Notes under the pieces: model-generated
Databases searched by the model: none
Seen by the model: the letters and a program-made list of their open reading frames with translations, nothing else
What the model was told of the DNA's origin: nothing
Shown here: piece after piece, positions 2 to 38,633 of the stretch
Numbering within the stretch: the stretch's first letter is position 1
Layout: every line of letters starts with the position of its first letter
NCBI GenBank assembly: GCA_030691585.1
Contig: JAUYEC010000145.1
Location: forward strand, 1 to 44,496
Reading direction: 5' to 3'
DNA length: 44,496 nt
Source: Candidatus Omnitrophota bacterium
GTDB lineage: Bacteria > Omnitrophota > Gorgyraeia > Gygaellales > Profunditerraquicolaceae
Translations under genes and position numbers: made by a program

Positions 2-814
2 CCGGACACGCTGGTTATCGCCGTCAGCCAGTCCGGAGAGACAGCCGATACTTTGGCGGGTGTGCGCGAGGCCAAGGTTTATGGCGCTAGCGTGCTCTCT
101 ATTTGCAACGTCCTGGGCTCGACGCTTGCCAGAGAGTCGGATGGCGTTATCTATACTCACGCCGGGCCGGAAATTGGCGTTGCTTCCACTAAAGCCTATA
201 CAGCGCAGCTGGCCGCGTTTTATTTATTCGCTTTGTCTCTTGTCCAGATCCGGAATATCTTGCCTGCGGCCCAGGTCAATAAATATCTGGAACAGTTAGT
301 GAGCGTCCCCCGGAAGCAGAGCGCGGTCTTAAAGAAGCAAGACGTTATTGCCCGGCTTGCGCGCCGGCATTCGCATTTCGGTTCGTTTCTATTCTTAGGC
401 AGGAACGTTAATTATCCGTCCGCGCTGGAGGGTGCCTTAAAACTTAAAGAAATATCCTATATTCCTGCCGAAGGCTACGCTGCCGGCGAGATGAAACACG
501 GCCCCATTGCTCTTATTGATGAGTACCGGGGAGTGGTCTGCATCGCTCCGCAGTCCAAAATTTATGAAAAGATGGTCTCTAATATTCAGGAGATCCGCAG
601 CCGCCGCGGCAAGATCATTGCTATCGCCACAGAAGGTGATACTAAGATCAAAGAACTGACCCGGGAAGTAATATATGTGCCTGAAATCGAAGAACTTTTT
701 TCTCCTTTGATCGTGGCACTTCCTTTGCAATTGCTGGCCTATCACATCGCGGTCAAGCGCGGATGCGACGTGGACCAGCCGCGCAATCTGGCGAAGTCGG
801 TTACTGTAGAATAA
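2..814 (+). CDS. glmS: glutamine--fructose-6-phosphate aminotransferase (isomerising), C-terminal SIS-domain portion; 5' end outside window
   Basis: Frame 2 is open from base 2 (PDTLVIAVSQSGETADTLAGVREA...), containing the SIS-domain S-x-S-G-E-T motif. It ends with the family-typical C-terminus ...CDVDQPRNLAKSVTVE*. Track ORF 53..814 is the same frame. Confidence 0.93.
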   Translation, partial: PDTLVIAVSQSGETADTLAGVREAKVYGASVLSICNVLGSTLARESDGVIYTHAGPEIGVASTKAYTAQLAAFYLFALSLVQIRNILPAAQVNKYLEQLVSVPRKQSAVLKKQDVIARLARRHSHFGSFLFLGRNVNYPSALEGALKLKEISYIPAEGYAAGEMKHGPIALIDEYRGVVCIAPQSKIYEKMVSNIQEIRSRRGKIIAIATEGDTKIKELTREVIYVPEIEELFSPLIVALPLQLLAYHIAVKRGCDVDQPRNLAKSVTVE

Positions 815-823
815 AATAAATTC

Positions 824-854
824 TGTAGGGGCGGGTTTCAAACCCGCCCCTACA
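824..854. repeat. family-A REP-like palindrome (A1 subtype): TGTAGGGGCGGGTTTCAAACCCGCCCCTACA
   Basis: Read directly: 14-bp arms GTAGGGGCGGGTTT/AAACCCGCCCCTAC around a central C. It starts 10 nt after the glmS stop. Confidence 0.95.
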
Positions 855-874
855 ATTGAATGCATGGCAGATTT

Positions 875-932
875 TGTAGGGACAGGATAATATGCTGTCC
901 CTCGATGGACAGCATATTATGCTGTCCCTACA
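875..932. repeat. doublet of family-A palindromes (A4/A3 hybrid followed by a 5'-truncated A3)
   Basis: TGTAGGGACAGGATAATATGCTGTCCCTCGA followed by TGGACAGCATATTATGCTGTCCCTACA. The central base is A in the first and T in the second, so the two copies are in opposite orientation (REPIN-like pair). Confidence 0.9.
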
Positions 933-960
933 GTGAATCCGTATCGGGTACCATCAAAAA

Positions 961-1614
961 ATGCTTTATATCGTAGCTACCCCTATCGGCAACTTAAAAG
1001 ATATAACTCTGCGGGCGATAGAAACTCTTAAGTCCGTTGATCTGATCGCCTGCGAAGACACCCGCCACACAAAGATCCTCTTAGATGAATACGGCATCAA
1101 GACTTCCACCACCAGCTATTTTCAGCACAACCGTTTCGCTAAGGGCGAATATCTTTTGGGCCTGCTGAAGCAGGGTAAAAATATCGCCCTGGTTTCTGAT
1201 GCCGGCACGCCCGGCATACTTGACCCCGGATACCACTTGATCAACCTTGCGATAGAGCAAGATATCCCGGTTACCGCCATCCCCGGGCCAACCGCTTTTA
1301 TTGACGCGCTGGTTTTATCCGGCAAGCCCACGCATGATTTTATCTTTGCCGGTTTTCTGCCTAACCGCACCCTCGCACGGCAAAACTGCCTTAAAGAGTT
1401 GAGCAAGCAAAAGCGCACCATTGTCTTCTACGAATCCTACCACCGCATCCTTGCCACCCTGGAAGATATCCACAAGGTTTTTGCAGGCCGCGAAATCGTT
1501 GTTGCCAGGGAACTTACCAAGAAATTTGAAGAAATAAAGCGCGGCCCAGCCGAAGAAATCCTCTCTTCTTTCCAGCGCCAAAGCCCTCGCGGCGAGTTCG
1601 TAATCGTAATATAA
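961..1614 (+). CDS. rsmI: 16S rRNA (cytidine1402-2'-O)-methyltransferase
   Basis: The N-terminus MLYIVATPIGNLKDITLRAIETLKSVDLIACEDTRHT... and the later SDAGTPGILDPG are the tetrapyrrole-methylase-fold RsmI signature. The 217-aa length fits the short form. Confidence 0.85.
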   Translation: MLYIVATPIGNLKDITLRAIETLKSVDLIACEDTRHTKILLDEYGIKTSTTSYFQHNRFAKGEYLLGLLKQGKNIALVSDAGTPGILDPGYHLINLAIEQDIPVTAIPGPTAFIDALVLSGKPTHDFIFAGFLPNRTLARQNCLKELSKQKRTIVFYESYHRILATLEDIHKVFAGREIVVARELTKKFEEIKRGPAEEILSSFQRQSPRGEFVIVI

Positions 1615-1742
1615 AATCGTTTTAAAATGTCCAATTTGTATTAATTGGCTTTTATTGCCCAATTTTCATGCCCTGTCGGCATAATCGTACGGAATAAGCA
1701 ACCTCTGCCCCACAAAATGCAACCGCTTTCCCGAAACCCCTC

Positions 1743-1772
1743 TTAACCCCTTGAATTACCTTTATATATAAT
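1743..1772 (+). promoter_or_regulatory. candidate sigma70-type promoter upstream of the giant ORF
   Basis: TTAACC (1743-1748), an 18-nt spacer, then TATAAT (1767-1772), in an AT-rich tract containing two copies of TTTATATATAA (1761 and 1778). The -35 is weak, so the call is tentative. Confidence 0.25.
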
Positions 1773-1829
1773 GTAAATTTTATATATAACGGCTGATAAG
1801 CTAAAACGACTTTTAATGCGCAATTATCT

Positions 1830-1860
1830 TGTAGGGACAGGTTTGAAACCTGTCCCTACA
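1830..1860. repeat. family-A palindrome (A2 subtype): TGTAGGGACAGGTTTGAAACCTGTCCCTACA
   Basis: Perfect 14-bp arms around a central G. It ends 17 nt upstream of the giant ORF start codon. Confidence 0.95.
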
Positions 1861-1877
1861 GAAGAATCCAAAGTAAA

Positions 1878-1964
1878 ATGATTAAAATAACCGTCAGAAA
1901 AATCTATAAAATATTAACCATTCTACTCTGCTTTCTGCTTTGCTTTGAACAATCCGGTTTCGCC
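1878..1964 (+). other. Sec-type signal peptide of the giant protein (aa 1-29)
   Basis: MIKITVRKIYK (basic n-region), ILTILLCFLLCF (hydrophobic core), EQSGFA|QVAG (small-x-small cleavage context). Confidence 0.75.
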
Positions 1965-4900
1965 CAGGTTGCCGGGCAATTGGATATTTCCGGCTACCTC
2001 ACCCAGCTGCGGCAGTCCTGGACTACCGACAAATTCCGCCCCTTGCACCTGCGTTACCTTTCCTACGATAATCTGAATAATACTTTTAAGCTCCTTTTGG
2101 ATAAAGGAGATCAATCGAAAGATTCTGTAGGGACAGGTTTGAAACCTGTCCCTACAACAAACGGTGATAGCGCTCCTGTAGGGACAGAACATCGTTCTGT
2201 CCCTAACATCGAAACAGAGACCAAAACTCTGCTCAATTATTTCTTCATCGGCGTTTCCCTGCCCAACGACACATTCTGGGTCAATCTGCGGCCCGACTCG
2301 CCGGACAACATGATCGATCCGCTCCTTGCGTCAACTGACGTCGGTAAGATACTCTTGGAAGCCGACGTCCAGCTAAAGAAAGACACCGCTAAATGGACTT
2401 CTCCTGATTCCCCCGAAGGCAGAGAATACTGGGATAAATTATACCAAAAAGCCGGTGAAATCTTCGGCTCTGAAAATATCACTATTCCTACTCTTACCCG
2501 TCCCTGGATCGTGCCCGATGAAATCATTATCCGTGAATCAGATACCAATGCCTATATTTACAAAGCCACGCTCAAGGTAATGCTGGAGGAAGATTATCTC
2601 AACAACAACGGTAGGGACGGGTTTGAAACCCGCCCCTACAATTTTGATGATCCGCGTCTTAAAGAACTAAACGTCTATTCCTCCCAGCTTATTCGCGAAC
2701 TGATCATCCCCAAACTTACCAAAGAAATCAACATCTCCAAGCGTTACGCTCCCCTAAGGCAGGTTTATTATTCCCTGATCATGGCCCAGTGGTTCAAACA
2801 GAAATTCTATGGTTTGGGAGGATTATATTCCTCGCTGATTGACAAAAGAGACCTTTCCGGATTAACCTCTAAAGAACAATGGTCAAAAGACACCTACTTT
2901 GCTGCCTACCAGAAGTCCTTTAAAGACGGTGAATATAATTTTAAAGAGCCGGTGCGTACCCTTTTTGGCCAGAGTATCAGGAGTTATTTTTCCGGGGGGT
3001 GTGCTATAACCGGTGATTCTGTGGCTGCAGCTTATGCGACAGGAGGCAGGATAACGGCTGGCGCAAACAGAAGATTGCCGCCGGAATTAGCAAAGAACGG
3101 CCGGTTCGTTGATGGCAAGGGAGGAACGCCGGACGATCTTGCTCTAAGCGGGGCAAGCCCGTCCCAATCTGTCGCCGCGCCAAGCGCGCAGACGGCAATT
3201 AAGACGGCAACGCAGAATAAAGATGTCCGCTATTTTAAGTTAGGGGACGTGATTTGCGGCGCGTATGACCCGGTGGATGGCCAAATGTATTTTGATTTTG
3301 ACGCGATTAAAAAGGCATTACCTGATATAACAAAAGCCCAGGCAGTAAATTTACTCTATTTGCATGAAGCTTTTCATGAGGTAATCGACAGGGTAGGTAT
3401 TGTAATTGAAAACGAAGAAGCGCTGGTTAATGCTTTAGCTAAGGAGAAATTAAATATAACGTTGACGACGGAAGAAAACGGCGCATTAGCGGCCTGCCGC
3501 GGAGGAGAAGCATATAAACATTTACAAGGCGATGCTAAAGGCCTGCTTGATTATAAACCTTTCGCTGCAGAAAAGATCGGGACGTTTGAGGATCCGATCG
3601 GGGATTTTATGCTTAATCTGCAACGTATTCTGCCGGGCGCAGCTTTTAACAAAGTCCAGGCAGCTGTCTTTACGCAGGAATTTATTAAGAAGCTCGAAGG
3701 GCATGGAGCACGATTTAGGACGGCAACAATGGAGGCACCTGCCGATGAGGCAACATCAATAACCGGTACGGCCGCTGAGGAGATCGATGTTACTTCTTAC
3801 GCGGAATCCGCTAACGGCGCCAATGGTCAAGAGCCGCGTGATGGCGGAAGGCTAAAATTGCGCCCGCTTCGCGAAGACTTGTCAAAAATGAAATTGGAGG
3901 CAGATGACCTGCTGCCTGTCGGGCTAGGCGACTCAGGCGCAGATATTGCCATGCGTCAAAAGATAGCAAAAATAATGAACGGCCTGACGGTTAATATTGT
4001 GTTTGACCAGGCACGGGAAGAAGAAAAGTATGTATATGCGCAAGATGTGGGATCTGAATGGGTCAATAGCCAGGTTAAATCATTAGCCGCCCGGGATGAG
4101 GATATGTATAAGGTCGGGCGTGCCTTAGAAAGCGCGCTTGAACAAAATATACAATTTCAGATTGAAAAGAAAATTTTGAGCTATTGTCAGCAAAACAGCA
4201 GATTTTTGTCCCGCCAGCATCCATTGGTAGAGGCATTGCAGGCCTATTTGGACCGCACGGCTGATCCCGGCAAGCCAAAGGCCCGTTTATTTGTGGCAAT
4301 AGACGGAACCGAAGCCATGGGTTTTTCTTTCGGCAACAGCATTGTCGTGAATTTAGCCCTTATTGCAGCATTGGATACTATAGATGAAGCCGTAAGTGTG
4401 CTTTATCATGAACAGCAGCATCATGAAAGATATTGGGATCGCGGGTCCTTGGGCCGCGGTGGCGTGTTCGCCTTTATCAACGACATATCCAAGAGTAGGC
4501 TTCAGGAACATGAGGCTGACCTTGTCACGCCCGAAAAATTAGCCAGGGTCGGGCTTAATACTTCCGCTTTGTCAGATGCGTTGCTTAAAATAGCCGGGGT
4601 TCGTTCTCAACAGGATATGACGCACGGAAACGTCTCAAGAAGGGTCCTTGCGAACCTGATTTGGCACAAAAAAATAGATTTGGAAGGCGGGGTCACTGAC
4701 GGCAGGGCCCAAGTAAATATTCCCATGCCTTCTGACTGGAGGCCTGCCGAGATACTGCCAAATGTAAACGAAAGGCTATTGGCTGACGGTATGTCCGATT
4801 TCCGCCGCGCGGTTGCCGAGGCGCCGGTAGATATGCTGCTCGGTGTATTAAAAAGTTTGGTTGAAAAAACAGGCGCTGACAATATAGATAAACTTCTCTT

Positions 4901-7900
4901 TGTCATTTCTCATCTTGGTAAACAAGTATCTTCTGATGCAAGGAGAGCCGGATATTCACCGCGCCAGGCGGAATTAATGGCCCTGGCCTTATTAACAAAA
5001 GCCGGGGGAACGGATGATTGGCTGAAGCTCTATTTAGTCACTTTGGGCCGCGCGTCAGAAAGGATCAAGGAAATATTACGCAGGGCGGCTGTGTCTGCCT
5101 TGCAAGAAGTAAATGGCGATCCCCTGCTTGATAACCGCGGGGCGATGGCGGCAGGCCGCCAATTATTTAATGCCGACCTGAACCGCGCGGCCGATATTGC
5201 TGCCAGGGCATTTATTTATGATAGGAAAGTAAGACAGGGCCTGTTCGCGGACAGCCTTGAGGTGGCAGATGACGGTTATTTAATACCGGCCGCCTCAGAA
5301 CTATGGCAGCTTGCAAATCGCAGAAAGGCCGGGCAAAAAGAATTTTTTATGCAATACGCGCCTCTAATGACAGGTTGGTATGTGGATAATTTCTGGAACA
5401 ATCATCCTAATGACCATGCAAATTTTCTAGTTCTCGTCGCGCAGTTAAAAGCTGCGCACGCGCATTATCGGCAATTGGCCGATGTCAGCCAGCAGGAACT
5501 TATAGGCATGTATGATGTGGAAGTCAAGCTGAAAAGCAAGTTGCTAAACGACCCCAGTGCGTACGCTTATTCAATGAGGCTCGTCGAAATGGCCATACCA
5601 AACCATATAATAAGCGCGCAAGAGGCGATTGAAACGCTCTTTGAGATAAAAAATGAGGCTCTGGATATTTTGATAACTGCCCTGCGTGATAAAAACGAAG
5701 CGGCCTTTCTGCAATTATTGGCAAAACATCCCGATGCGCTGCTGAATAGTTTAGAGAATTGGCACCGTGAACGCAGGCTTGTCGAGCTTGGAGAGAATTC
5801 GCCTGAAATATGGAGCTGGCTGTATGAAACAGTGAAGAGCAATTGGCATAAGGATTCATTTGTGTTTCCTTCATCCATTCCGGATCCGGGCAAGAAGGGG
5901 CTCGATTTAGCGGATTCATTAGGCATACGTTACGCAATGGAGGGAAGAGATGACCCGATAACGCCCGATGCAAAAGTGCAGCCCGGATTAAGCAGGCTGT
6001 ATTATGCCATAGAGATAATCTGCTGGCTCAAGGTGCGCAGCTCGACAGAAAGGGCGCGCATGATAGAAGAATTTCTGGGGGGCCAAGAAGCCGTATCAGT
6101 CGTGAATTCCGCGCCCTGGATAGCCTTAGAATCTATTTTGAGATCGCTGGGCTCGGGCGGCTTCTCCAATGTCAATGCGCCTGATGATGAAACAAACGAA
6201 ATTCAAAAAGCATGCCGGGATAGAGTATTAAATACTTTGCCTTTTCTCCGCGTGAGAGATGGTTTATTGGTTTACCTGGCCGCGGCAGAAGATTTGAGAC
6301 AGGGTGGAAAAATATTCGGGAAGCTTTCGGAATCGTGGGATCTTTACGGACGAAGTTGGGGGAAAATTAAGGCGCAAGGCTTCTCGGAAGCCCATAATCG
6401 CTGGCTCGCGCCTGCCAACCGCGGTTACTGCGAATTGCTAAAAAGGGCATTATCTTCGCTGGATATTGCAAGCGAACCCGAGGAAGCAAGGAATTTTTAT
6501 TTTAAGCTAGCGGAATTCCTTCCCCCCGGCGCGGAAAGATCCGGTGTCTTGCGAGCCTATGCGATGCGTTTGGTAGAGCAGCTTCCTAGAGGCGAGCTGC
6601 ATTGGTTTTTGAACGAACTATCGCGTCAGGGCCAGATGGACAGGCAGATCTATGAACATTTTGTGCAGGTCAGGGTAAAAACATACAGGGAAGATTTCAG
6701 GGAATTTAAAAATTTCCTCAAACAGAACATAAATGAACTTGTTACAAGCGGCGACCTGAAGTTAAGCGGGTTAACCGCCCTAGACACGGTACTTGATCAA
6801 ATACTGAATGAAAATCTCGCCCGAGAGGTATTTGTTGCCATGCTCGGTTCCGGAAAGAATGATGCCGCTTTGCAGGCCCTGCTTGTGCCATATTGGTATC
6901 AGGCTATGGCCCACACGGAAGGTTTGGGATATTACATCATTAATAATAACGGGCGATTGGAGGTGGCCGGGGTAAACAAACCCAGGTTTGTCTCGTTTCC
7001 CCAATTCATGGATACGCTCTACAACATAAGCCCGGTTGTAAAGCTGATGATTTTGGAGAAATTACTCTTAAGCCCTAATGGATTATTACATCAATCTAAA
7101 GAGGCAGATGCCAATTATGGCAAAAAAGAGTTTGCCGCGGCTTTAGCCCAAAACTTGCCGCAAGATGGAGAATTGTCTGGATTGATAAGGGATGTTCTTT
7201 TTGCCTCAGGGGAATCACTGGAGGCAGAAGTGATGTTTTTGGCGTTAGCCAACCCTTTGCTTTCACAGTTTTTGCAAAGGCCCCCATCCGGGATTCGAAC
7301 GAACAACACCGAGTTAGCAGAAGCGATAAAAAATAACTTGAACAAGCACCATTCTTTTTCAGATAAAGTGCTGGCTGCGGTGGGGAGGCATGATATCAGC
7401 GCTTATGCGGATTTCCTGGACCGCTATAATAGCATTACTGCAACAAATGTTAAGGCAGGTTGGGAAACAGAAGCAGGTATAAGCTCGCTATATGATTCGC
7501 TAACGCAATCATTTGGCTTTCGGCCCACAGAAGCATCTTCCAAAGGCCCACAGGTATCCGCGGCAAGCGGCCCAATGAATATAATTGTTGAAGCCTGCCA
7601 AAGCTTAGGCCCTGTCGGCGTTAGGTTCTTGCAGGTTTTAGGGCAATATATGGACATACCTGAAGAATACCAGGAAAAATTCCGGGATATCTACGATTCT
7701 ACCAAGGGGCAGGATAAATTGATTGCCTTTAATACGCTAGACGCTTTATATTACGCTGCCATAGATCACCCGGAGAACCAGGAATTAGCGGAAATAAAAA
7801 AGTTTATAGATGAAGATCTTGTTTCTTTGGACAGCCAGATTGGAGGCGGTTCTATTGTGACCGTATTCTTAGTGACAGTGCGCGATCGTGATGCGTCCGG

Positions 7901-10900
7901 ACACATTTGCGAAACCACGCACCAGGAGGTTTTAAAAATAAGAAATCCCAACGCCGAGATGTGGGTGCGCCAGACGCAGGAACGGGCGTTGAAGATTGTT
8001 GATGTTCTGGAAAGACAGGCGCGCCAAAGAGGAGATTCGAAATCAAAGATTAAGCAATTTACGGTTGCAAGGAGAGTCTTGCGTGATATCGGAGAATGGG
8101 TTATCCAGGATATAAGAGACACAAGCTTTATGGAGTTGGACGCCCATTACAGCAAAGCGCATGAAGGTGCCGTCGCAACTAACGGTATGAAGGTAAGAGT
8201 ATCGCAAGCCAAACGGCCGAATAACAAAGATGTCAAGCGGGAATCTCTGGTTCCGGGTATAACCTTGAACAAGCTCTTAAAGTTGGCTTCATCGCCTAAG
8301 CCTATCGAGGAACTTATCAGGGAAGCGGACGACGCTTATACGTTAGAATTATTGCAGCAGGCAAAAAAAGAGGGGTTGGCCCCAGCTGAAATTTTAAAGC
8401 GCGCAACAGCCGCCGTAATAGAAGATTTTTCCCGCGGCCTGGCAGAACCAGCCTTTACGGAAAACGGCAGGGGAGTTTATTTGTTGCATTCAGACGTACA
8501 CTTTGGTAACGCTATTATCACGCCTGATCTTAAGGCGGTTTATTTAATTGACCGCAATCTTTATCTAAGGATGGATAAAGCAGATGTGGATTTTGTCCGT
8601 AAGATAGCCACGGGTAAGGCCTCGGATAAATTTGCTACACTGAGGGCGATCGTAGACTATTTCCTGGGTTTGCCGGAAAACAGGGGTTCGGTCCTTTTAT
8701 CAGGGTGGGGTTTTCTGCGCAGGTTTGGATTAGCAAGGGAAATAGGATTAAAAGTGCGGGCATCCGGATCGAGCAGCCCCTTTGTGACAATGATGATGGT
8801 CCTCCAGGAATTAGAATCGCGTAACGTAGTCATACCTTTACGGATGAGGATCATGTTTAAGAACCTCGCATCCATAAATGCGATGCTGGCTAAGACTGGA
8901 GCCGGTAATTTCAGTGATTATGTGAAGGCCGCTGAAAGAAATGCCCATGAGCCTCTGGCAGCAGGTAGTAGGATGCCCGAGAGGCTCTCCGCAGAGAGCG
9001 TTATTACCGACAAGCAGGAGCTTAGTCTTTTTGTTGTTCAACATGATATTAGCTGGACTCTCCGGCCCGATGAAGGCACACTGGGCATACAGGATATTAA
9101 AGATAGCAGATTGACTGCTTTATCCATGGCAGAAGACGGCGAAAGCGGGGACATTACCTATGACGGGAAAAGGCTCCATTTTTATAGGGTGAATAAAGAT
9201 GGGAAAGAGTTTTATCTTATTGTGACCGGTGGTATTGCCGAGCCGGATCCGCGACGCGTCCCCGGCGCGGCGGCGCAGGAGAGTAGAACACAAAGGGAGC
9301 AGCAACCGGATAAGCAGTTAGATCAAGATCCAAAGCCACAAATGACACGCCGGGCATTCTTACTAGGTGCGGCCGGCGCGACAACGGCCGCAGCATTAAT
9401 AGTGGCCGCGGGAAGATTGATTAAAGAAAAGAGATTGCCAGTTCCCCAGGACCAGGAATTATTAGATATTTTTAAACAAGGTGAGTCTTATTGGCGGACT
9501 ATTTCTGATGATCCCGAAAATGTCCCTCTTCCAGACCGGTTGGCCTTAGGAAAATTAATGTGGGAAATAGGGGAAACAGTCGATATCGGCTTCCGTCAGG
9601 AAACCGCGACGGGGGCTTATGACGGCGCAAGAAGGTTGTATTCTTCGCAGGAATTGCTAGATGCTGTTTTCGGTGTGCAGAGAGAGGCGTTGGATAGAGG
9701 GGATTTCGACAATGAGAAAAGAAAGATAAAGGAGCTGATTTTGTACCTGGCAGAACAAGTTTTTAGAAAGGAATTAAGGAATCCGCAAGGCTCGGGATCC
9801 GTTGCAAGTTCTATTGAAAGGGTTTTGGAGAAACTTGTGGAAATAGGAACTAATCCCGGTTCCTTTTTCCCGAGTCCAAATAGGGAGGTAATTAAAGAAG
9901 AAGTTAAGGGATTTTCTTTCTATCTGGAAGTTAAAAAGCGGTCTTATATTACCGGTCAATCCAAGACAGAAGAGGTAGTATCGGAAAAAGAGCAGCAAGA
10001 ACAAATCTTCCTAATGAAGGCCAGGCTTGCTTTTCAGTTGTATTATTATTTCCCTGCATTTAAAGAAGAAATATTGGGCAAAAGATTGATAAAAGTTAAT
10101 ATTCATTTAGCCGATAATATGGCGGATTTTGAGAGGATGGGCGCGGCAATGAATGGGGTAACTAATCCTTACGCATTTGAGGTAATAGAGGCGCCTGTCC
10201 ATGGGAGTTATTCAAAAGCCATGCGTAGTTTGAGTTTCCCTTTACGGTCCCTGTATTTAAGGCAATCCTTAGGGGATGACATCTCCTTACACGAGATGGG
10301 GCATTTGATAAGCTATATTTTAGGATGGGGGGATGAGAGGCAAGCGGAGAAGATAGCCAGGGCTATCTTGAAATTAAACAGTTCCGCATACAGAAAAGTA
10401 TTCCCCATTAAAAAAGGAAAGATTATCTTGCCAAAAGCGGATGATTACGGAAGCAGGGATTATTCTAAAAAAGATATAGAAATGGTCTATGCTCCTTATT
10501 CCCCCGACAAGGAAACTTTTGCTAATTTGTTTATGCTTTGCGAGATCGGCACGGATTTCCCCGAAATAGTTAATAGCGGCATTACCGAAAACGAGAGAGA
10601 CGGCGAAGAGGCAAAGGCAATATATTCAATTTTGTCCGCTTGGCGGCAATTCCTTTTAGAGCACGGGTACAAGGGAAATCCTCCATGGTTTAAAAAAGGA
10701 AAATCTTTGTCGGCTGAGGCTAATACAGCGGCTACTGCCGCTCGAATAACCTATGATGCACAGCAATTAAGGCAATCCTTGCAGGATGGCTCACTTGACT
10801 TGAGAGGAGTGGAAGGCAGCGGTATATCGGAAAAAGACCTGGAAGCATGGCGGGCACGCCAGGCACAAGGACAGCCTGCGGCGCAGACGCAAAACGTCCC

Positions 10901-13900
10901 CAGCGCGGCGGCTAAAATTGCAGAAGAACAATGGGGGGATGAAGGGGAAGATGTAAGCGCAGGTAGTGCACGAGATGCCGTTGATCTGAGTAAGTTAACC
11001 CGTATCAATTCTATCAGCGAAATACTGGTATCGCCAAGATTTATTGAATATGGACAAGCGATACGCACAGGGAGCAAGCCCAAAGACAATCTATATGGAG
11101 AGATTGTAATATTGGACGCGGATCCGACAACGGCTGAATTAGAAGAGATTGCGAATCTGCCCTATGAAATGGCGCTTTTCAAAATTAAAGATGGTAGATG
11201 GGTAGTGGGTGTCGGCAACGGCCATAGTCCGCCGTTAAGAATGTATAAAGACAACCAGTTAAAGGCAATGGTGATAATAGCTATACATAATCACCCCGGC
11301 GAAGGCTTAGTGCCTTCTCCTGAAGATATTGGCGCAGTTGAAGGAATGGAGCGCGCCACGCATGTTATTTTAGCAGGAAAAATCGCAATGATTTATCGCG
11401 GACTAGATGCCGCGCAGAAACGGAAACTAGAAGCAGGTTTTGCCGAACGGATGGGTATGCCGGAGGCCGCTTCCGCGCCCATGCCTAACGCGGCCACCAT
11501 TGAATTAAAAGCGCGTTGGGAGGAAATAAAGGCGCAGATGGCGGCAGAGATTAGGCAAACAGGCGTGACCATAAGCGTGGATGAGCAGTGCAGGAGAATT
11601 TTGAAAGTATATCAGGATATAGGAATGGACTTTAGGACTTTGTCTATTCCAGGATTGGTTGCGAGGCTTGATCTATCGTCTGCGGATACTTTTGTTGTGC
11701 CCGGAGCGTTGATTACCGCGTTGGAAAAAGAAGGATTGGTTGGGCGCAGTTTTGAGCAGGCGCTGTTGGGCATGCATAGAGGCTATAAGGCAGAAATCGA
11801 AAACGAGTATCCGGCTTTCGCCAACCTGCTTGCACAACCCGGCAATAGATTGGATTGGCACCATATCATACAGGCAGTTGCCGATCACAAGTACGTCCGT
11901 TGGCTTGCGCGTCAGCTTGGTGCCTCTTACGAAGATGTTTTTCTGCGCTTTAACGCTTCAAGTATCGGCCCGCAAGATCAGCTTTCTTTTGCCGATAAGC
12001 AGAAGGTTATCAACGCCCTTTTGGCTTCTGTGCATAGCGTGTATTTTGATTCTAAGGGCAGAAGTGTCAATATGCAGGGCTACCTCGAGGATTATTACGG
12101 GCCCTTGGGAGTTAAGGTCTCTGTTCGTTTTGAAGAAGCCACAGGGGCTTTGCGCGAAGACGTTATTAAGAAGGCGCTATGGGGCAGGATGAAGACTGAT
12201 AAAGCCCTGGGAATTCTTAATATTCTCAGGGAAGGAGGTATGCCGGCATTAAAACAGCGGCCCGAGTTTCTGGATATCGCAAAAGCTATTGAGCCAATAT
12301 GGAATGCAGAGGTGCCCATTCCTATTGTTTTAATAAATTCTCAAGGTAGAACATTTGAGACTATCATTGTGGCCGCTAAGATTACAAAAGAGGGGGTGTC
12401 CGGCCCGGCTACGGCAGCGGTTGTCCTTCCTTTAAAAAATATTCAAGGGGAGATCATCTTGATGGATGTCATCAAAGATATAGAGACTACCCAGGGGGTA
12501 TTTGATCTTTTGGGCAAACTGATTCATGAATTAGATCACGCGGTATTGATGACTGTGACCGGACGGCAAATTTATCACGCCAGTATATTTGCGGAAGGCG
12601 CCGCCGAAGAATCCTTTGCCGCCTTTATGGCAGCGCAGGATGGGCCGATGAGCCGCAACGGCGTTGACGGCCTTGATTATGATTCCGCTATCAGGTTATT
12701 TGACCGGCAAGCCGATCCGGACAGAGGGGCCGTTCCTTATACTGCCGGATGGCTCATGGCCCATGCTTATCGCGGCGTAATGGGTGAGCAGGCATACTTT
12801 GACTTATTCTATAATCCGGATAAATACGCGCAGGCTCAGCCTGTAGCTGATGCTTTTATAGGCGACTTGGAGCAGGTTTTAGCACCCCGTCGGCCGATCT
12901 ATAGAACATTATTTAGCCCTGTTTCAGCCCCAGCCGTTACTTCCGCCGCCGTCGGCGAAAGGCGCTATGCCGCACCAGAAATAAGGCAGATGATGCAAGG
13001 TAAAACACTTGACCTGCGATCGATGACAGGGGCCCCCGCAGACATAACCGATGACACCATCTTAGTTCTGACTCCTGATAGCGAATACATAATTCGAAAC
13101 GGCGCCCATATGGCAGTTCACAAAAGAGATAATTATTATTGGATTGAAGGCGGCGGCATGCCGGAGGAGCTTATTCGGGCAAGGCAAGAGCGCGAGCGCC
13201 AGGCGCAGGTCGGACAAGGCCAAACAAGCGGCCCCGGCGCGGCGGAGCGAGGTGATCGGGAGACTGTTAAGCGAAATTTACGCGCTGCTATTCAGTTAGC
13301 TGATGCCCGGGCGAAGACCGCCAGCGATTCTTACTACAAGCACAGCCAGATATTAGCAACAGCAAAAGAAGACCTTGCCAATTTCGAAAGGGGTATTTCT
13401 TCGCTGAAGGCACAGCTGGGTTATGCAGACAACAATATTAAGTCTAAGCAGCAAATACTGAACACTTTGCTGGGCAACCAAAATCAAGATTTTGCCAATA
13501 TGGGTTTTTGGGAGAGACGAAAAAACAAAGGCGCAAATGCTCCATACGCAGCGCCTATTGCAAGCGCGCAGGAAAAATTGCGGGAATTGAATGCGAAAAA
13601 ACAGGAATTGCAGTATTCCTTAACAGAAAAAACCGTTGCCCTTGAGGAACAAAAACAAAAAGTTGTTTCTTTGCAGGCCGAAAATGACCAGTTGGCCAAA
13701 ACAAACGATGAGGCAAAACAAGTTTCGTTGGCCCTCGCAATTATTGATGACATGGGGACTAAACAAATGCTGACTCCAGAGGACCAAATGCACATTGTTG
13801 CTCCCGAACGCCTTTCGGCTATTGCCCGGACAGCACCAGCAGGGTATATCCGGCAAACCATTTATCTTGCTGCCAAGGGAAAAATTGAAACCGGAGATCA

Positions 13901-16900
13901 GGCCAAGCCCTGGCTTTTGGAACGGTTAAAAAATGATTTTAATAATACAAGCCCATTAGTCAATTCTTATTCTTTAGAAACATTATCTATGGAAACGGTT
14001 GATCGGACCAAGAAGTTCCTCTCCCAGGCCGATTTTGATAATAAATCCACCGATGCGCAGTATGTCTTTTCGGAAATGCAAAAACAAGGAATCGATTTGG
14101 CCTCGGCCGATTTGCCGGAAACATTTGCCCGTATCCTGGCTGAGCGGGATATCAGGTCAGCGCAAGGCGAAGGCCAGGGGACCGGCAAGGTTTCTCTTGT
14201 GTCAGTTCAACGGGATCACTTTATGGCCCGATATAATCGGGAAAATATTTCCCGCATGAGCATGGAAAGATATCTCGCCTTGTACGGGCAGACCGCGGCC
14301 AAGGATTATGTGATCCATGGTTTTAGCTGGGCAAGTCCGAAATTCCCGCAGGTTTTGGCAGAAGGTAAACTTAAGCCTTCTGCTCCATATCAGAAAACAA
14401 CTTTTGGCACAGGGGCGCAAACGCATTCAGTACATTTCTCTGTTAATGAATCGGCTTACAATAATCCGATCGGTCTTTTTGCGCCAATCGGTGCGGTGAT
14501 CCAAAACGTGCCGTTTCAGATGATGACAAACTCCGAAATGGCCAGCTTGGCTAATGACTGGCCGGTGGCCGGGGACCAAGAGGTGACGCTGGACATCGGC
14601 ATCTTGCTGGTGCCAGACATATTGGATCCTGCGAAAAGTTTTGATGGTCAGAGGTTAGCGGAGATAGATTTACGGTGGCAGAGTGCCAGTAAAGCGCAAC
14701 AGTTAAGCATGCTTGCAGAAGCCCGAAGAAATATCCAGTCTTTGATACAGCAAGGTCAGCGGGTTTATTTTTATAAAGCGAATCTGGATCACATCTATTA
14801 CATGAGCAGCGGTGTCGAGCAGCTACTGAGAGATAAAGCGGAATTTGTTAAGAGGGGCGGGACTGTTGATGAAACGTTTTTGAATAAAATTGTGAATCCC
14901 GACAAACACACTCCCCAAGAGATAAGGATTGCAGGAGATTTGGAATATTCGCACAATGTCGCCTTAACCGATTCGCAGGAGGACACATACAAGTTCTCTC
15001 ATAGCCAACCGGGCTATACAAATACTAAAGGTCAAGGTTTGTTTGTGAAAGTAACAGCATTCAGGCAGGGAGGTGTAAAAGAGACAAATTTTGGTGCATC
15101 AGAAACCGTTCAGTCATCTTTAAATGCCCGGCAAATCAGGGATGCCTTGGATAACGGCAAACTTGATTTAAGGGGTGCGGCCGGCGGAGTAATTACGGAG
15201 GCGATAATTGACGATAGCGCCGTATTGGATTTAACTCCACGCGCTGAATATATCATATTAAACGGCGCCCGGCGAGCAGTTCACAAAGTTGGAGATCATT
15301 ATGAAATCGGCGCTGAAAGCGGCGGAATGCCGGAAGAGCTTATCCGGGCAAGGCAAGAACGCCAGCGCCAGGCGCAAGGACAGCCTGCGTCGCAGCCGCC
15401 AAGCGGCCCTTCCGCGGCGGAGGACGGAACAAGGGGTGTTGTGTATTATCATCAGAGCGATGTTGAGATCGATGGATCGCTAGGGCCATCTAAAACAGAT
15501 GTCTTAGCGGGTGTTTGGTTAAAACGCGAACCAGCTGATCTGAGGTTGCAGGGTAAATCTTTGGGGCGGTATCAATACGTAGTTCAAGTCAGCGATAAAA
15601 CAGAAAAAAACACATTGACCGTTACAAAGATAACCCGATGGGTTGGAAAAGCAGGAGAGCCTAGAGATAAGACTCAAGGCACATTGCAAGATTTTCTGAT
15701 TGAAAACGGGAGGCAGGATTTAGCCGAAAGACTACAGAGGGGATATACTAAGTTGCCTGGTGCAGAATTTTTAACAGCCTTGCGCCATGATCTCACTGAA
15801 TTTTTGTTGCTTAGAGGGTATAAATATATTGAATTTACAGATGCCGGTGATATCGTTGGCCGCGGTTTTGTTGAATTTCCAGCGGTGATTGCCCTTGAGA
15901 CAGCTAGTTTATCAATTTCCGGAAGGGAATTTACTCCAGTCGCCGTCGCGGCGGGAGAAGAGAACCGGACGATTGGCAACGGTATAGCCGTTGGCTTCAA
16001 GACTTCGCAAGGCAGCGCATATACCTTAAATGGGACTAGTACGCAACGCAATAAAACAAGTCATGCTTTTCACGATCCAAAGGATGTTGGTGTTAAGCCC
16101 ACAAGCGAGCGTACTTACTATGTAGCTCCCGAAGCGGCAAAGTGGATAGGAGCGTTCCAGGGGTTAGAAGGAGGTATCGAACACAGAAGGATATATATAA
16201 ATAATGAAGGCGTTTCCACAATCGCTTTTCACAAAACGAAAAATCGATGGGTTAGATTCGATGGCCCATTTAAAATTTCCAATACGCCGCAAATTGGTTT
16301 GTGCCCGCTGGAATTATGGGGAGAGGATTCCCAAGCAGGGAATGCGTACTCATATAACGAATGGCATCCGGGTAATCAAATTGTTGAAATAGTTTATGGA
16401 GATACTCAAATAGCACAAAAAGAGGAGCAGCCGCCAAGCGTCCCCGGCGCGGCGGCAACCTCCGTTACTTTGATCAAGGCAGATATATTCCAGGATATAG
16501 CGGATCGATATGAGGGGGCCTCTTGGGATCCGTCGCTGTTTGATGATGAAGATTATCTGAATGCCGAAGGTAAATATAACCAAGAGCCGGCATATAGATT
16601 CCGCAATAGAATACCGCATTATCTTGCGGCCGTAGAAAGATTAGGCCAAATACGTGCCACAGTTGCTGAAGGCAAACAATTAACGCAGGAACAGTTAATA
16701 TTAATAAAAACGATAGAAGTGCATTTTCGTTTACGTGGTTACTTGTGGTATTGGGAAGAGACGGGAAAGAGCAGGGTAACATTTCCGGCGAAAGTGACAT
16801 TGAGCCGCGCGCTCAACATGTTGTTCGGTCAGGTCAACGATTTGGATCATATGTTGGATTTCTTCGAACTTATGCTGCTTAGGCATGTGAATAGTTTCGC

Positions 16901-19276: not shown

Positions 19277-19306
19277 AGTTACCAATTGGTAACTATTATT
19301 ACCAAT
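19265..19306. promoter_or_regulatory. 42-bp perfect palindrome (putative operator) spanning the -10 box to the ATG
   Basis: ATTGGTAATAATAGTTACCAA|TTGGTAACTATTATTACCAAT, checked base by base. It consists of two abutting TTGGTAA-n6-TTACCAA inverted repeats. It overlaps the -10 element and the annotated ATG at 19305. Confidence 0.7.
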
Positions 19307-19955
19307 GGAGGAGGTAGGATTGTTATTGGATAGGCCGCTTGATAATATCTTAGGACAGTATTCCAAGGTAAAAATACTGCGGTTCCTGGTTAAAAGCCAG
19401 GCGCAGTTGAACGGACGGGAGATCGCCAAGAATGTCGGCTTATCCCATGTAAAAGTCCACACTGCCTTGAAAGATCTAACTAATCAAGGCGTAGTGAATA
19501 TGCGTTCAGTGGGCAGTTCCCTGATTTACTGGCTTAATGAAGAACATTTCTTAGTCAGGGAAATTATAAGGCCCGCGTTTGAGAAAGAAGAGTCTCTTTT
19601 AAAATATGCCGCTAAAATTATCTTGGGAGAAATTTCTCCCCCGCGGCCTTTAAGCATTATTCTTTTCGGAAGTTTTGCCAAAGGCAGCGCATCGGCTGAT
19701 AGCGATATAGATGCCGCCATTGTGTATCCATGCGGCAAGAATAAATCGCTTATTGCGAAAGAATTATCAGAGGCGGAGAAGAAGATAACCTCGCTTTTTG
19801 GGAATCACTTGGCAAGCGTGCCGTTTTCGATACTTGAATTTCAAAAGAAATTAAAGAAAAAAAGCGCCTTTATTAACGAAATTATCCGCACCGGCAAGGT
19901 CATCTACGGGAAAGATATATCCGAATTAATCAGCGCAAATGACAAAAGAGATTAG
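19305..19955 (+). CDS. winged-helix DNA-binding domain fused to a minimal nucleotidyltransferase (MNT/MntA-like antitoxin candidate)
   Basis: The N-terminal half, GREIAKNVGLSHVKVHTALKDLTNQGVV, is a MarR/ArsR-like wHTH. The C-terminal half, IILFGSFAKGSASADSDIDAAIV, is the G-S-x9-10-D-x-D NTase motif. An alternative in-frame TTG at 19320 lies 5 nt after GGAGGAGG. Confidence 0.75.
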   Translation: MEEVGLLLDRPLDNILGQYSKVKILRFLVKSQAQLNGREIAKNVGLSHVKVHTALKDLTNQGVVNMRSVGSSLIYWLNEEHFLVREIIRPAFEKEESLLKYAAKIILGEISPPRPLSIILFGSFAKGSASADSDIDAAIVYPCGKNKSLIAKELSEAEKKITSLFGNHLASVPFSILEFQKKLKKKSAFINEIIRTGKVIYGKDISELISANDKRD

Positions 19956-20349
19956 AACCAGCCAGGTTTCCAAGTCGGAGTACATAAATTACCTTAAAAA
20001 AGCCGAAGAATTTTTCTCAAGCGCGCAAGACAGCATCATAAAAGGGAAATGGAATTCTGCCGGGTTGAATGCCATACATAGCGGCATATCTTCGGCAGAC
20101 GCCTTGTTGGTTTCTTTGCATGGCATAAAAAGCTCAAGCCCGAAACACGACGACATACTTAAGCTCCTTAACAGTTTGGTAAAACACAAGGGGCTTGAAG
20201 AAAATATCGGCCATTTACGCAATTTAATTTCTATGAAAAATGTTGTCGAATATGATCAAAGGTTAATCACTCAAAATGAGGCTATAAATCTGGCAAAGCA
20301 CGCCGAAAGATTTCTTGCGTGGGTGAAATCCATGTTGTTCAAAGGATAG
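19939..20349 (+). CDS. HEPN-domain protein (COG2250-like), partner of the upstream NTase
   Basis: All-helical, 136 aa, with ...KWNSAGLNAIHSGISSADALL...KHDDILKLL...HLRNLISMKNVVEYD, a layout typical of HEPN domains paired with MNTs. It overlaps the upstream gene by 17 nt. I do not see a canonical R-x4-6-H RNase motif. Confidence 0.65.
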   Translation: MTKEIRTSQVSKSEYINYLKKAEEFFSSAQDSIIKGKWNSAGLNAIHSGISSADALLVSLHGIKSSSPKHDDILKLLNSLVKHKGLEENIGHLRNLISMKNVVEYDQRLITQNEAINLAKHAERFLAWVKSMLFKG

Positions 20350-32954: not shown

Positions 32955-33742
32955 AACGAACGACGAACGACCCCTCGACTTGGTTCGACTCCGCTCACCA
33001 CAGGTCGCTCGGGGTAAACGCACGACGAACGACGGAGCTTATTCTCGCCCTGGACGTGCCTACTCATGCGCAGGCAATGCGCCTGGTCAAACTGCTCTAT
33101 CCTAAGGTAAGGATTTTTAAGGTTGGCCTGCAGCTTTATACTGCCTGCGGGCCGAAGATCGTCGCGGATATCCGCAGGGCCGGCGCCGAGGTTTTTCTGG
33201 ACCTGAAGTTTAATGATATTCCTAATACCATGGCTAGCGCTGCTATCGAAGCGGTTAAACATAAAGCGGCGATGTTTACCGTGCATACGCTCTCCGGGCC
33301 GGAGGCACTTAAAGAGGTGGCAAAGGTCACCAAAGGTACCGGGACAAAAGCTTTGGGTGTGACCATCTTGACCAGCATCTGCGCGCATTTTTTAAAAGAC
33401 CTGAAGATCCAGCGCTCGCTTTCTCAGGAGGTCCTGTATTTAGCGCAGATGGCTAAGCGCTGCGGCTTAGACGGCGTGGTCTGTTCTGTCAATGAAGCGG
33501 CGCTGTTACGGCGCAAGATCAAAGGCAAATTTATTATCGTGACCCCCGGCATAAGGCCGGATGCGGCGGCGTGCGACGACCAGAAGAGGGCCGCTACTAT
33601 AAGCCAGGCCCTGGAAGCCGGAAGTGATTATCTCGTTGTTGGCCGGCCGATATTGGACGCGTCCGATCCCCTGAAAGCGGCGCAGAATTTTATTCGTCTT
33701 TGTAGGGGCGGGTTTGAAACCCGCCCCTACAGAAGATATTGA
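32951..33742 (+). CDS. pyrF: orotidine-5'-phosphate decarboxylase with repeat-derived N- and C-terminal extensions
   Basis: The core is LILALDV...DLKFNDIPNT...VHTLSG...VTPGIR...VVGRPI. The ATGA overlap with pyrD fixes the start, so aa 2-28 (KRTTNDPSTWFDSAHHRSLGVNARRTT) come from a family-C element. The last 14 aa (LCRGGFETRPYRRY) come from the family-A palindrome at 33701. Confidence 0.88.
   Translation: MKRTTNDPSTWFDSAHHRSLGVNARRTTELILALDVPTHAQAMRLVKLLYPKVRIFKVGLQLYTACGPKIVADIRRAGAEVFLDLKFNDIPNTMASAAIEAVKHKAAMFTVHTLSGPEALKEVAKVTKGTGTKALGVTILTSICAHFLKDLKIQRSLSQEVLYLAQMAKRCGLDGVVCSVNEAALLRRKIKGKFIIVTPGIRPDAAACDDQKRAATISQALEAGSDYLVVGRPILDASDPLKAAQNFIRLCRGGFETRPYRRY
32955..33034 (+). repeat. 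family-C element, long form, forming the 5' end of pyrF
   Basis: AACGAACGACGAACGAC-CCCTCGACTTGGTTCGACTCCGCTCACCACAGGTCGCTCGGGGTAAACGC-ACGACGAACGACG. It is about 90% identical to the long form in pyrK (31301). ACGACGAACGAC is present on both flanks. Confidence 0.9.
33701..33731. repeat. family-A palindrome (A1) read through by the pyrF 3' end
   Basis: TGTAGGGGCGGGTTTGAAACCCGCCCCTACA. The pyrF stop TGA lies at 33740-33742. Confidence 0.95.
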
Positions 33743-33756
33743 TACAGGAGAGTAAG

Positions 33757-34365
33757 ATGACACAGGATATCAAAGAGCTGATCGAAAAAATAAACCGGGA
33801 AGGCTTACAGGCGGCCGAAGAGAATGCCCGCGGCATCGAGCAGGCGGCAAAAGAAGAAGCAGCGCTCATCCTGGAAAAGGCAAAAAAAGAAACGGAAAAA
33901 TTGATCGCTGAAGCCAGGGAAAGTATCCGCTTGATGGAAGAAAAGCAGCAGGCGCTTCTGGCCCAGGCCGGCCGCGACCTTTTGCTTTCTTTGCGCGCCT
34001 CAATAAATGCCATGCTTAATAAAATCGTTGTTGAACGGATCCGGGATGCCCTTACTCCGCAGGAGCTGGCAACTTTAATCGTGAAGCTGGCCAAGCACGT
34101 CTGCGCCGACCATAAAGATGAAGTGGAAATTACTTTAAAAAAAGAAGATTACCAGGCGCTGGAGCATCATTTTCTCTCCGCGCTTAAAGAAGAAATAAAG
34201 AAGGGCATAACTTTAAAGCCGTCCCCTTATGTCCTGGGAGGTTTTTACATCAGCTTTGACGCCGGAAAGTCGCAGTTTGATTTTAGCGACAGCGCCCTGG
34301 CTGAATATATCGGGACTTATCTTAAGCCGAAACTTGCTGAAATACTAAATCCGGAGTCAAAATAA
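33757..34365 (+). CDS. atpE: V-type ATP synthase subunit E
   Basis: MTQDIKELIEKINREGLQAAEENARGIEQAAKEEAALILEKAKKETEKLIAEARE is the long charged N-terminal helix typical of V/A-type subunit E. The RBS AGGAGAG precedes it and it is first in the operon. Confidence 0.8.
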   Translation: MTQDIKELIEKINREGLQAAEENARGIEQAAKEEAALILEKAKKETEKLIAEARESIRLMEEKQQALLAQAGRDLLLSLRASINAMLNKIVVERIRDALTPQELATLIVKLAKHVCADHKDEVEITLKKEDYQALEHHFLSALKEEIKKGITLKPSPYVLGGFYISFDAGKSQFDFSDSALAEYIGTYLKPKLAEILNPESK

Positions 34366-34371
34366 TATATT

Positions 34372-34398
34372 GTTCGAGCGGGGTCGTCGTTTAGCCCC
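34372..34398. repeat. family-C fragment in inverted orientation
   Basis: GTTCGAGCGGGGTCGTCGTTTAGCCCC. Its reverse complement GGGGCTAAACGACGACCCCGCTCGAAC resembles a tail-head junction of family C. Confidence 0.55.
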
Positions 34399-34403
34399 TT
34401 GTT

Positions 34404-34434
34404 TGTAGGGGCGGGTTTGAAACCCGCCCCTACA
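34404..34434. repeat. family-A palindrome (A1)
   Basis: TGTAGGGGCGGGTTTGAAACCCGCCCCTACA, identical to the copy at 33701. Confidence 0.95.
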
Positions 34435-34451
34435 TAGCTGAGGTAAGAACT

Positions 34452-36699: not shown

Positions 36700-36710
36700 A
36701 GAAAGATCTT

Positions 36711-38006: not shown

Positions 38007-38007
38007 T

Positions 38008-38625: not shown

Positions 38626-38633
38626 TCGTAGCG

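Follow-up and report, generated by a model that had tools for sequence, protein, structure and literature searches.

Giant proteins of groundwater Omnitrophota, and of further uncultured bacteria, are encoded by very long, mostly unannotatable open reading frames (ORFs), and have internal transmembrane (TM) helices and peptidase domains for which self-processing has been proposed (West-Roberts et al. 2023, 10.1101/2023.11.21.568195). A gene that is alike in these traits was analysed in a stretch of 44,496 nt from a groundwater metagenome (Candidatus Omnitrophota bacterium, GenBank assembly GCA_030691585.1, contig JAUYEC010000145.1), which is referred to as the window. The ORF (1878..19115, + strand, as are all features of the giant given below) has no internal stop and codes for 5,745 amino acids (aa); the public protein library has an entry of identical sequence (P0001). 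Unlike the described Omnitrophota giants, this one is much smaller (5.7 kaa), has one internal TM candidate and lacks a SecA-DEAD domain. The TM candidate is the subject of this report. It lies in the middle of the protein (9342..9434; aa 2489-2519) and consists of an internal Met followed by a near-consensus leader of the twin-arginine translocation (Tat) type.

MARTX toxins and Rhs/CDI-type polymorphic toxins are modular multi-effector or polymorphic giants. The giant analysed here is like them in its conserved N-terminal delivery part, in cassettes that are swapped among close relatives at one locus, and in repeated joints. It differs from them in that its connectors are an undescribed module of ~100 aa and in that the start codon and leader of one cassette are still in place.

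Tat signal peptides carry the consensus S/T-R-R-x-F-L-K at the n/h boundary (Palmer & Stansfeld 2020, PMC7317946). With these and with uncleaved signal-anchors (Rieske/PetC; models TIGR01409, PF10518, PF10399 and PF25471) the segment shares T-R-R-x-F-L, a G/A/T-rich h-region of moderate hydrophobicity and basic residues behind it. Unlike Tat leaders, it is internal to an unbroken ORF (first residue, aa 2489), 2,488 residues away from the N-terminus of the precursor, scores below the curated cut-offs, precedes a passenger of 3,226 aa and, given the Sec signal of the giant, would have its twin arginines on the trans side. An internal RR, a TM domain (TMD) of low hydrophobicity and C-terminal positive charges are also found in dual Sec/Tat proteins (Streptomyces coelicolor Rieske protein Sco2149, Sco3746 and polyferredoxins; Keller 2012, PMC3471235; Tooke 2017, PMC5449189). 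These proteins combine an even number of upstream Sec-inserted TMDs with a compact cofactor domain, whereas the giant has one signal peptide and a multi-cassette tail. Giants with internal TMs have been described before, and so have Tat leaders and Tat-dependent TMDs at internal positions. New is a near-threshold twin-arginine leader that is kept with its start codon inside a mosaic giant, at a repeat-marked joint, with its capture documented by a stand-alone homologue and a positional orthologue.

Sequence and origin of the internal leader

The segment opens with an in-frame ATG (9342-9344), which is followed by T-R-R-A-F-L (9345-9362), an uncharged, A/G/T-rich h-region of 20 residues (9354-9413; AFLLGAAGATTAAALIVAAG) and the basic flank RLIKEKR (9414-9434). 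The complete translation is M-TRRAFLLGAAGATTAAALIVAAG-RLIKEKR. A low-complexity spacer of 22 aa (9276..9341), made up of Q, E, D, K and P, leads from the tail of the preceding connector to the Met; the residues just before the Met are QESRTQREQQPDKQLDQDPKPQ. Sequence, frame and position of the segment were hereby verified as given in the earlier note on this DNA. Six of the seven consensus positions are matched (T-R-R-A-F-L-L, aa 2490-2496), with L in place of K. Models of Tat leaders were the top matches of the segment, none of them above its cut-off (TIGR01409, 16.4 vs 16.7 bits; PF10518, 13.9-14.2 vs 22.7 bits), and weak matches were also obtained with TM_PetC and UCR_Fe-S_N, which model the Tat signal-anchor of Rieske proteins. 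Residues 2493-2511 form the most hydrophobic run of 19 residues in the whole giant (Kyte-Doolittle (KD) value 1.94). Values above 1.6 were otherwise obtained only for the N-terminal signal (1.79) and for a strand within the M48-like domain (1.70). A second TM at this latter peak (aa 814-832) was rejected, since the peak corresponds to a strand that precedes HExxH and is conserved in the M48-like domain of all relatives. The h-region is Tat-like, being less hydrophobic than the strongly Leu/Ile/Phe/Cys-rich h-regions of N-terminal Sec signals and followed by the basic RLIKEKR. An RR motif with 13 uncharged residues and a hydrophobic stretch arose in 42 of 5,000 composition-preserving shuffles (0.8%), and RR.FL was expected 0.07 times per shuffle. 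A chance origin of the motif is unlikely, and the question is settled by homology to a stand-alone protein, P0012.

Relatives were collected by an exhaustive phmmer search with aa 2000-3199 of the giant against 1.8 billion cluster representatives. The 259 relatives obtained fell into three separate query blocks. The kinase-like domain (aa 2000-2360) matched the ends of many proteins of ~1,550 aa and positions inside other giants, the HExxH domain (aa ~2526-2941) matched stand-alone proteins of 350-580 aa, and the JAMM-like block (aa 3010-3199) matched P0005 and P0008. BLASTP of the giant against P0012 gave a single high-scoring segment pair (HSP; E 7e-48), which joins aa 2489-2939 of the giant (M2489 to K2939) to aa 3-463 of the 463 aa of P0012. 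This HSP opens at M-TRR in the giant and V-TRR in P0012, so that the internal leader aligns with the N-terminal leader of the stand-alone protein; identity over the cassette body is 27%. P0012 is encoded by a gene of its own, which starts with GTG and is preceded by a spacer of 147 nt. Its product opens with MAVTRRKFLVGAAATAVGGFALMQMKESETPP and continues into the same HExxH domain, and its N-terminus (MAVTRRKFLVGAAATAVGGFALM) passes the NCBI Tat-signal model TIGR01409 (19.3 vs 16.7 bits). All seven stand-alone homologues stop where the cassette of the giant stops, at GNPxW. The helical HExxH domain of the giant, which belongs to an unnamed family (9453..10694; HEMGH at 10290-10304), ends with GYKGNPPWFK as these homologues do.

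The giant is built from a Sec signal, a conserved N-domain, a block of M48-like, helical and kinase-like domains, and a series of cassettes that are linked by recurring copies of a connector. This connector module of ~100 aa (...DLRG...NGA..AVHK...GGMPEELIRARQERERQAQ...GPGAA) was found by self-comparison of the giant, alignment and its repeat family in a short form at aa 2944-3011 (10707..10910) and at aa 3695-3797 (12960..13268, with ...GGMPEELIRARQERERQAQ...GPGAA), 4416-4522 (15123..15443) and 5221-5322 (17538..17843). A divergent copy, which ends ...YLIVTGGIAEPDPRRVPGAAA, lies upstream of the segment (9000..9275; aa 2375-2466) and was aligned to its four counterparts in the giant as well as to the P0005 connectors. 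The connectors of P0005 are near-identical to those of the giant. The connector tail '(V/G)P(G/S)A(A/V)' is encoded by a direct repeat of 35 nt, termed D1, with a DNA identity of 63-83%. Most of its six copies (9240-9274, 10878-10912, 13212-13246, 15387-15421, 16422-16456 and 17811-17845) lie inside connectors; the copy at 16422..16456 (EEQPPSVPGAAA) is a junction repeat without connector. The first copy is held by the divergent connector and the second by the short connector that closes the cassette, and these two bracket the leader and the HExxH cassette. At least five further cassettes follow with connector repeats between them, and D1 marks every cassette joint in the C-terminal half of the giant. 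The repeat of the connector tail is probably a recombination joint or substrate for cassette swapping.

A positional orthologue, P0008, was found in the same gene order (glmS, rsmI-like gene, giant gene) on contig JAQTUD010000032.1 of GCA_028710405.1 (L005; 5905-12153, compared with 53-19115 of the window). P0008 is truncated by the contig end. A literature search for its assembly gave no result. Its signal peptide and N-domain are 69% identical to those of the giant, after which it passes straight into the JAMM cassette, and its cassette order differs. P0002 shares the stretch from the M48-like to the kinase-like block at ~50% identity and then continues with unrelated modules. Because P0008 has other cassettes at this position, the giant is a shuffled mosaic and not a fusion of two genes; a simple two-gene fusion was ruled out by the cassette set of P0008, the D1 repeats and synteny. 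The earlier note had suggested that a protein of 2,488 aa and one of 3,257 aa were fused at the Met. The idea of a fusion held, but the proposed shape did not: the leader heads a cassette of ~450 aa (aa 2489-2939) that corresponds to stand-alone P0012.

Since P0012 is colinear with the cassette including the leader, is a separate gene and passes the Tat model, the internal Met and leader were interpreted as a fossil, namely the N-terminus of a gene of ~450 aa that had been captured. With high probability, the segment is the leader which such a formerly independent gene carried at its N-terminus and kept when it was captured whole and in frame. For the mode of capture we infer that the HExxH-domain gene would have been taken in as one cassette, with start Met, twin-arginine n-region and h-region included. 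The locus would then be a clean example of giant-protein growth, in which a whole gene was captured at a joint conserved at the DNA level, with start codon and export leader still readable. Applied to pieces of giant ORFs, predictors of Tat signals or signal peptides will report such fossils as 'signals'.

An assembly chimera that joined two genes in frame would also place a leader inside an ORF. The Logan assembly of the source run is indeed interrupted at 9435-9460, between contigs of depth 10.5 and 13.8. However, these contigs share an overlap of 26 nt that occurs only once in the window, and the break lies past the leader, within the stretch that is colinear with P0012. The junction between the N-terminal half and the leader (9240-9342) is contained without differences in one independent Logan contig, which spans 8000-9460. 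On the spanning contig, the unique overlap and the colinearity with P0012 a chimera at 9435-9460 was rejected as extremely improbable. The break itself suggests a branch of the assembly graph, e.g. a strain variant, at the boundary of leader and domain.

A start codon that is still in place raises the question of internal initiation, from which the earlier note derived a second product. Translation from ATG 9342 would give a separate protein of 3,257 aa with an N-terminal Tat/Sec leader. The in-frame ATG stands exactly at the ancestral start. The missing Shine-Dalgarno (SD) sequence, reported correctly before, is uninformative, as about half of the genes in the window, including the giant gene itself, start without SD; such genes have A-rich upstream sequence, as is the case here. 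An 8-mer (ATCCAAAG) occurs 9-14 nt upstream of both the ATG of the giant at 1878 (1861-1880) and the ATG at 9342 (9322-9344), and this may be chance. Neither promoter-like, terminator nor SD signals rose above chance, and the equivalent segment of another protein, P0027, is preceded by GTA (Val), which is unable to initiate, yet keeps TRRGFL and the hydrophobic run. From this codon it follows that internal RR-hydrophobic segments exist here without being start sites. Internal initiation is therefore disfavoured and very improbable.

P0027 (1,359 aa, no N-terminal signal; L004, 1040-5119) contains a JAMM-like motif and a kinase-like C-lobe, ~65 residues later ...GGPQ-V-TRRGFLQLFVGLFSSIISLP..., and then a region with HEWFH. 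Its residues 455-485 (L004, ~2400-2490) are a second case of an internal twin-arginine and hydrophobic segment, GGPQVTRRGFLQLFVGLFSSIISLP. By hhalign, the HExxH family and the domain after this segment are unrelated, and a word-indexed search with P0027 returned only P0027 itself. A gene for an SLT-domain lytic transglycosylase adjoins the P0027 gene.

Possible present roles of the segment

The giant starts with a Sec-type signal peptide (1878..1964; MIKITVRKIYKILTILLCFLLCFEQSGFA, with the site before Q), which was assigned by inspection. Its n/h/c layout and GFAQ site are kept in the orthologue P0008, and the layout is similar in P0024. The N-terminus was regarded as a classical Sec signal, and the first ~2,460 residues should be exported.

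Behind such an exported N-terminal half, the preferred present role of the segment is that of a stop-transfer anchor, and this preference is a tentative one. At its internal position the leader is no longer able to serve as an N-terminal Tat signal. Sec would thread the N-terminal 2,460 residues outward, and the segment would reach the translocon from the trans side. The apolar stretch of 20 residues together with RLIKEKR would halt translocation, so that the segment would be the single membrane span of the giant, oriented N-out/C-in, with the C-terminal cassettes left in the cytoplasm. The positive-inside rule and charge-block effects on stop-transfer favour retention in this orientation. The C-flank of the segment has a net charge of +2 within 15 residues and of +3 in the first 7 (RLIKEKR, 4 basic of 7). 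The C-flanks of homologous or analogous segments carry -3 (P0012), -1 (P0027) and -1 (P0006), and their N-flanks +2, +2 and 0, respectively. The charge bias of the giant segment is the reverse of that in its relatives, and the giant is the one protein among them with an upstream Sec signal; the reversal was taken to hint that the segment has adapted to its new surroundings. The earlier note had proposed a single TM anchor as one option. The segment is indeed the only internal TM candidate; with its marginal hydrophobicity and basic C-flank it may serve as an anchor. A captured signal sequence can in this way turn into an internal membrane span. Such a span would divide the ~10 enzyme-like modules, with the kinase-like, the JAMM-like and four HExxH modules among them, between the cytoplasm and the outside.

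Several observations weigh against a captured leader that now acts as an anchor. The RR leader is present in only one of the seven stand-alone homologues (P0012); P0006 has a non-RR TM upstream and the other five have none. The KD value of 1.94 was reached in 73% of the composition-preserving shuffles (n=5,000). The pLDDT of the AF2 model is below 50 over the leader and uninformative there. The summed Hessa dG of the h-region, +0.63 kcal/mol, speaks for an anchor in being the lowest in the giant, but it is marginal, and passage of the segment through SecYEG is conceivable. In P0008 the JAMM cassette follows the exported N-domain without a TM between them. Finally, the giant shares its C-terminal GGI(D/N)(L/F) tail with P0024, a TM-less protein that carries a Sec signal; if this tail works outside the cell, the C-terminal half of the giant would be outside too, contrary to stop-transfer.

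Some of these points would also fit a neutral relic, i.e. a captured leader without present role that is threaded through SecYEG in a fully exported protein, or buried. The dG value does not clearly indicate membrane integration, and shuffles often reach the hydrophobicity of the segment. Relatives that carry this signal peptide and N-domain, namely P0024 and, as far as aa 1050, P0008, show no TM ahead of cassettes that are C-terminal in the giant, and the GGIDL-type tail is shared with the fully exported P0024. Against a relic, RR-x-FL, the uncharged run of 20 residues and the Met are all preserved despite a cassette body with 27% identity to P0012, and four basic C-flank residues were gained that the relatives do not have. 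A neutral relic was considered rather unlikely. A captured leader with a present role as stop-transfer anchor is the best overall explanation and, taken as a whole, somewhat probable.

A functional internal Tat-dependent TMD of the Sco2149 type was also considered. In this case Sec would abort at the weak segment owing to the C-terminal positive charges, and Tat would export the folded downstream domain(s). Signatures of the hand-over from Sec to Tat are a twin-arginine just N-terminal of the TMD, low hydrophobicity and several C-terminal positive charges (Tooke et al. 2017, PMC5449189), and all three are present in the giant. Among the top matches of the segment are TM_PetC and UCR_Fe-S_N, two models of Rieske Tat signal-anchors. 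P0027, without an N-terminal signal, with internal TRRGFL and hydrophobic segment and with an acidic C-flank, has an N-in/C-out geometry; its flanks (N +2, C -1) would fit a signal-anchor of this orientation. In the giant, by contrast, only one cleavable-type Sec signal lies upstream instead of an even number of TMDs, and the RR motif would be on the trans side. The next domain bears an invariant HExxH and could bind zinc, and ~2,800 further residues lie behind it; in the known cases the passenger is one compact cofactor domain. To our knowledge, a passenger of 3,226 residues is far beyond known Tat cargo. The cut-offs of the Tat models were missed, and no tat genes were found among the ORFs of the 44-kb window. 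Genuine Tat export of the 3,226-aa remainder is unlikely, and a hand-over of this type is improbable.

The kept leader could also be explained by processing. The giant would be a bacterial polyprotein or 'cassette carrier', whose connectors are both recombination joints and cut sites, perhaps for JAMM or HExxH peptidases acting in cis. A freed cassette of ~500 aa would be targeted to membrane or periplasm like P0012, using its twin-arginine leader via Tat, and a targeting signal would thereby be kept functional inside a larger gene. Connector tails are present on both sides of the cassette, several peptidase-like motifs occur in the same polypeptide, and the leader is intact; proteolytic processing has been proposed for Omnitrophota giants (bioRxiv 10.1101/2023.11.21.568195). 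Against this, Pfam and NCBIfam scans of the giant detected no known autoprocessing domain, 22 residues would still precede the Met, and co-translational export of the N-terminal half would not leave the cassette free in the cytoplasm for Tat. Processing and release of this kind are hardly probable.

Enzyme-like modules and terminal parts of the giant

The HExxH family comprises P0006, P0012, P0022, P0026, P0074, P0115 and P0117 (phmmer E 2.6e-52 to 4.7e-08). An alignment of the family (A1) has 22 invariant columns, including H-E-x-x-H, W, P-x6-L-G, E-T...L...DFP and P-x-W. The cassette of the giant contains the invariant columns and is colinear with the stand-alone members from end to end. The domain was modelled with AF2 at a pLDDT of 76 and a pTM of 0.77, and a Foldseek search of the model against the Protein Data Bank (PDB) gave no match at E<=0.001. 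The modelled domain, for which Pfam and NCBIfam have no family either, is possibly an undescribed fold or enzyme family, and its motif suggests that it could bind zinc. Word-indexed searches gave no matches for aa 2200-3200 of the giant, and with A1 returned only its own member P0115. Genome contigs scanned with the junction region gave no match; a scan with a second alignment (A2) returned only the locus of P0006 itself, in a metagenome-assembled genome labelled Altiarchaeota. Metagenome contigs scanned with A2 and with P0012 gave no match.

The JAMM-like cassette (10911..11477) carries the motif HNHPGEGLVPSPED (11286-11327; aa 3137-3150), of the type H-x-H-x7-S-x2-D. The cassette is shared with P0005, and in P0008 it directly follows the N-domain. 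Its scores for RadC-like JAB (19.5 bits, cut-off 22.1) and Prok-JAB (11.8 bits) are both sub-threshold. The N-terminal domain of the giant (1896..3188) is 69% identical to that of P0008 and 35% identical to that of P0024. The protein-kinase-like domain (7575..8972) has more than 100 homologues and is characterised by a GGGS loop, VLKIRNPN, HSDVHFGN and IDRN; the columns GGGS, VLK, HSDxHxGN and IDR, which stand for the G-loop, the beta-3 Lys, the HxDxHxGN catalytic loop and the metal-binding Asp, are conserved in 60 homologues. In a profile search against the PDB only kinase-fold chains were matched, among them APH(9) (E 3e-4), UbiB-like 5yjz (E 8e-4), CK2 and PknB. Pfam ABC1 did not match this domain even at E<=1.

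The domains that the earlier note had assigned to the two sides of the segment were thus verified in part. A kinase-like domain does lie on the N-terminal side, but an ABC1 match was not obtained. The JAMM motif lies on the C-terminal side as described, with the sub-threshold scores given above. A gluzincin domain was not confirmed, the modelled HExxH domain being without a fold match in the PDB. HExxH motifs occur on both sides of the segment (aa 496 and 844 vs aa 2805 and 3550). Scans of both halves of the giant with Pfam and NCBIfam gave only noise at E<=0.01, and a sequence search of both halves against the PDB gave no match. MARTX repeats, CPD, Rhs/YD, known toxin domains and known autoprocessing domains were absent from the Pfam and NCBIfam matches.

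A C-terminal tail that begins with GGI(D/N)(L/F) is common to four otherwise unlike proteins: the giant (18675-19112; aa ~5600-5745), P0024 (aa 2003-2060), P0035 (aa 225-290) and P0046 (aa 1746-1807). One stand-alone HExxH-domain protein is included in this set. A literature search for the GGIDL motif gave no result. The tail may be a sorting or secretion tag.

Neighbouring genes and palindromic repeats

The window has all of its genes on the + strand, and its cumulative GC skew stays positive. Housekeeping genes include those for pyrimidine synthesis, carAB, fpg and a V/A-type ATPase operon. The operon (E, A, B, D and I subunits; 33739-40400) adjoins the genes for pyrimidine biosynthesis.

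A perfect palindromic repeat of 31 nt (TGTAGGG[AG]C[AG]G-loop-C[TC]G[TC]CCCTACA), whose loops fall into two families, is dispersed over the window, where its core CCCTACA was observed 25 times vs 3 expected. Copies are mostly intergenic (~824, 875, 1830, 19124, 21074, 29109, 30637, 33701, 34404, 40428, 40478, 42570 and 44373). Further copies lie in frame in the N-domain of the giant at 2126-2156, 2177-2207 and 2610-2640, where they encode VGTGLKPVPT, PVGTEHRSVPN and GRDGFETRPY, respectively. These stretches are missing from the orthologue P0008. The palindromes are reminiscent of Rickettsia palindromic elements, which insert into coding sequence.

Directly 3' of the giant gene two ORFs overlap. 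The first (19305-19955) encodes a nucleotidyltransferase with a winged helix-turn-helix (wHTH) domain and the second (19939-20349) a protein of 136 aa, which matched the HEPN family in a Logan contig (L001) that carries an identical nucleotidyltransferase. By sequence, the pair (19305-20349) is a predicted MNT-HEPN-type toxin-antitoxin-like module.

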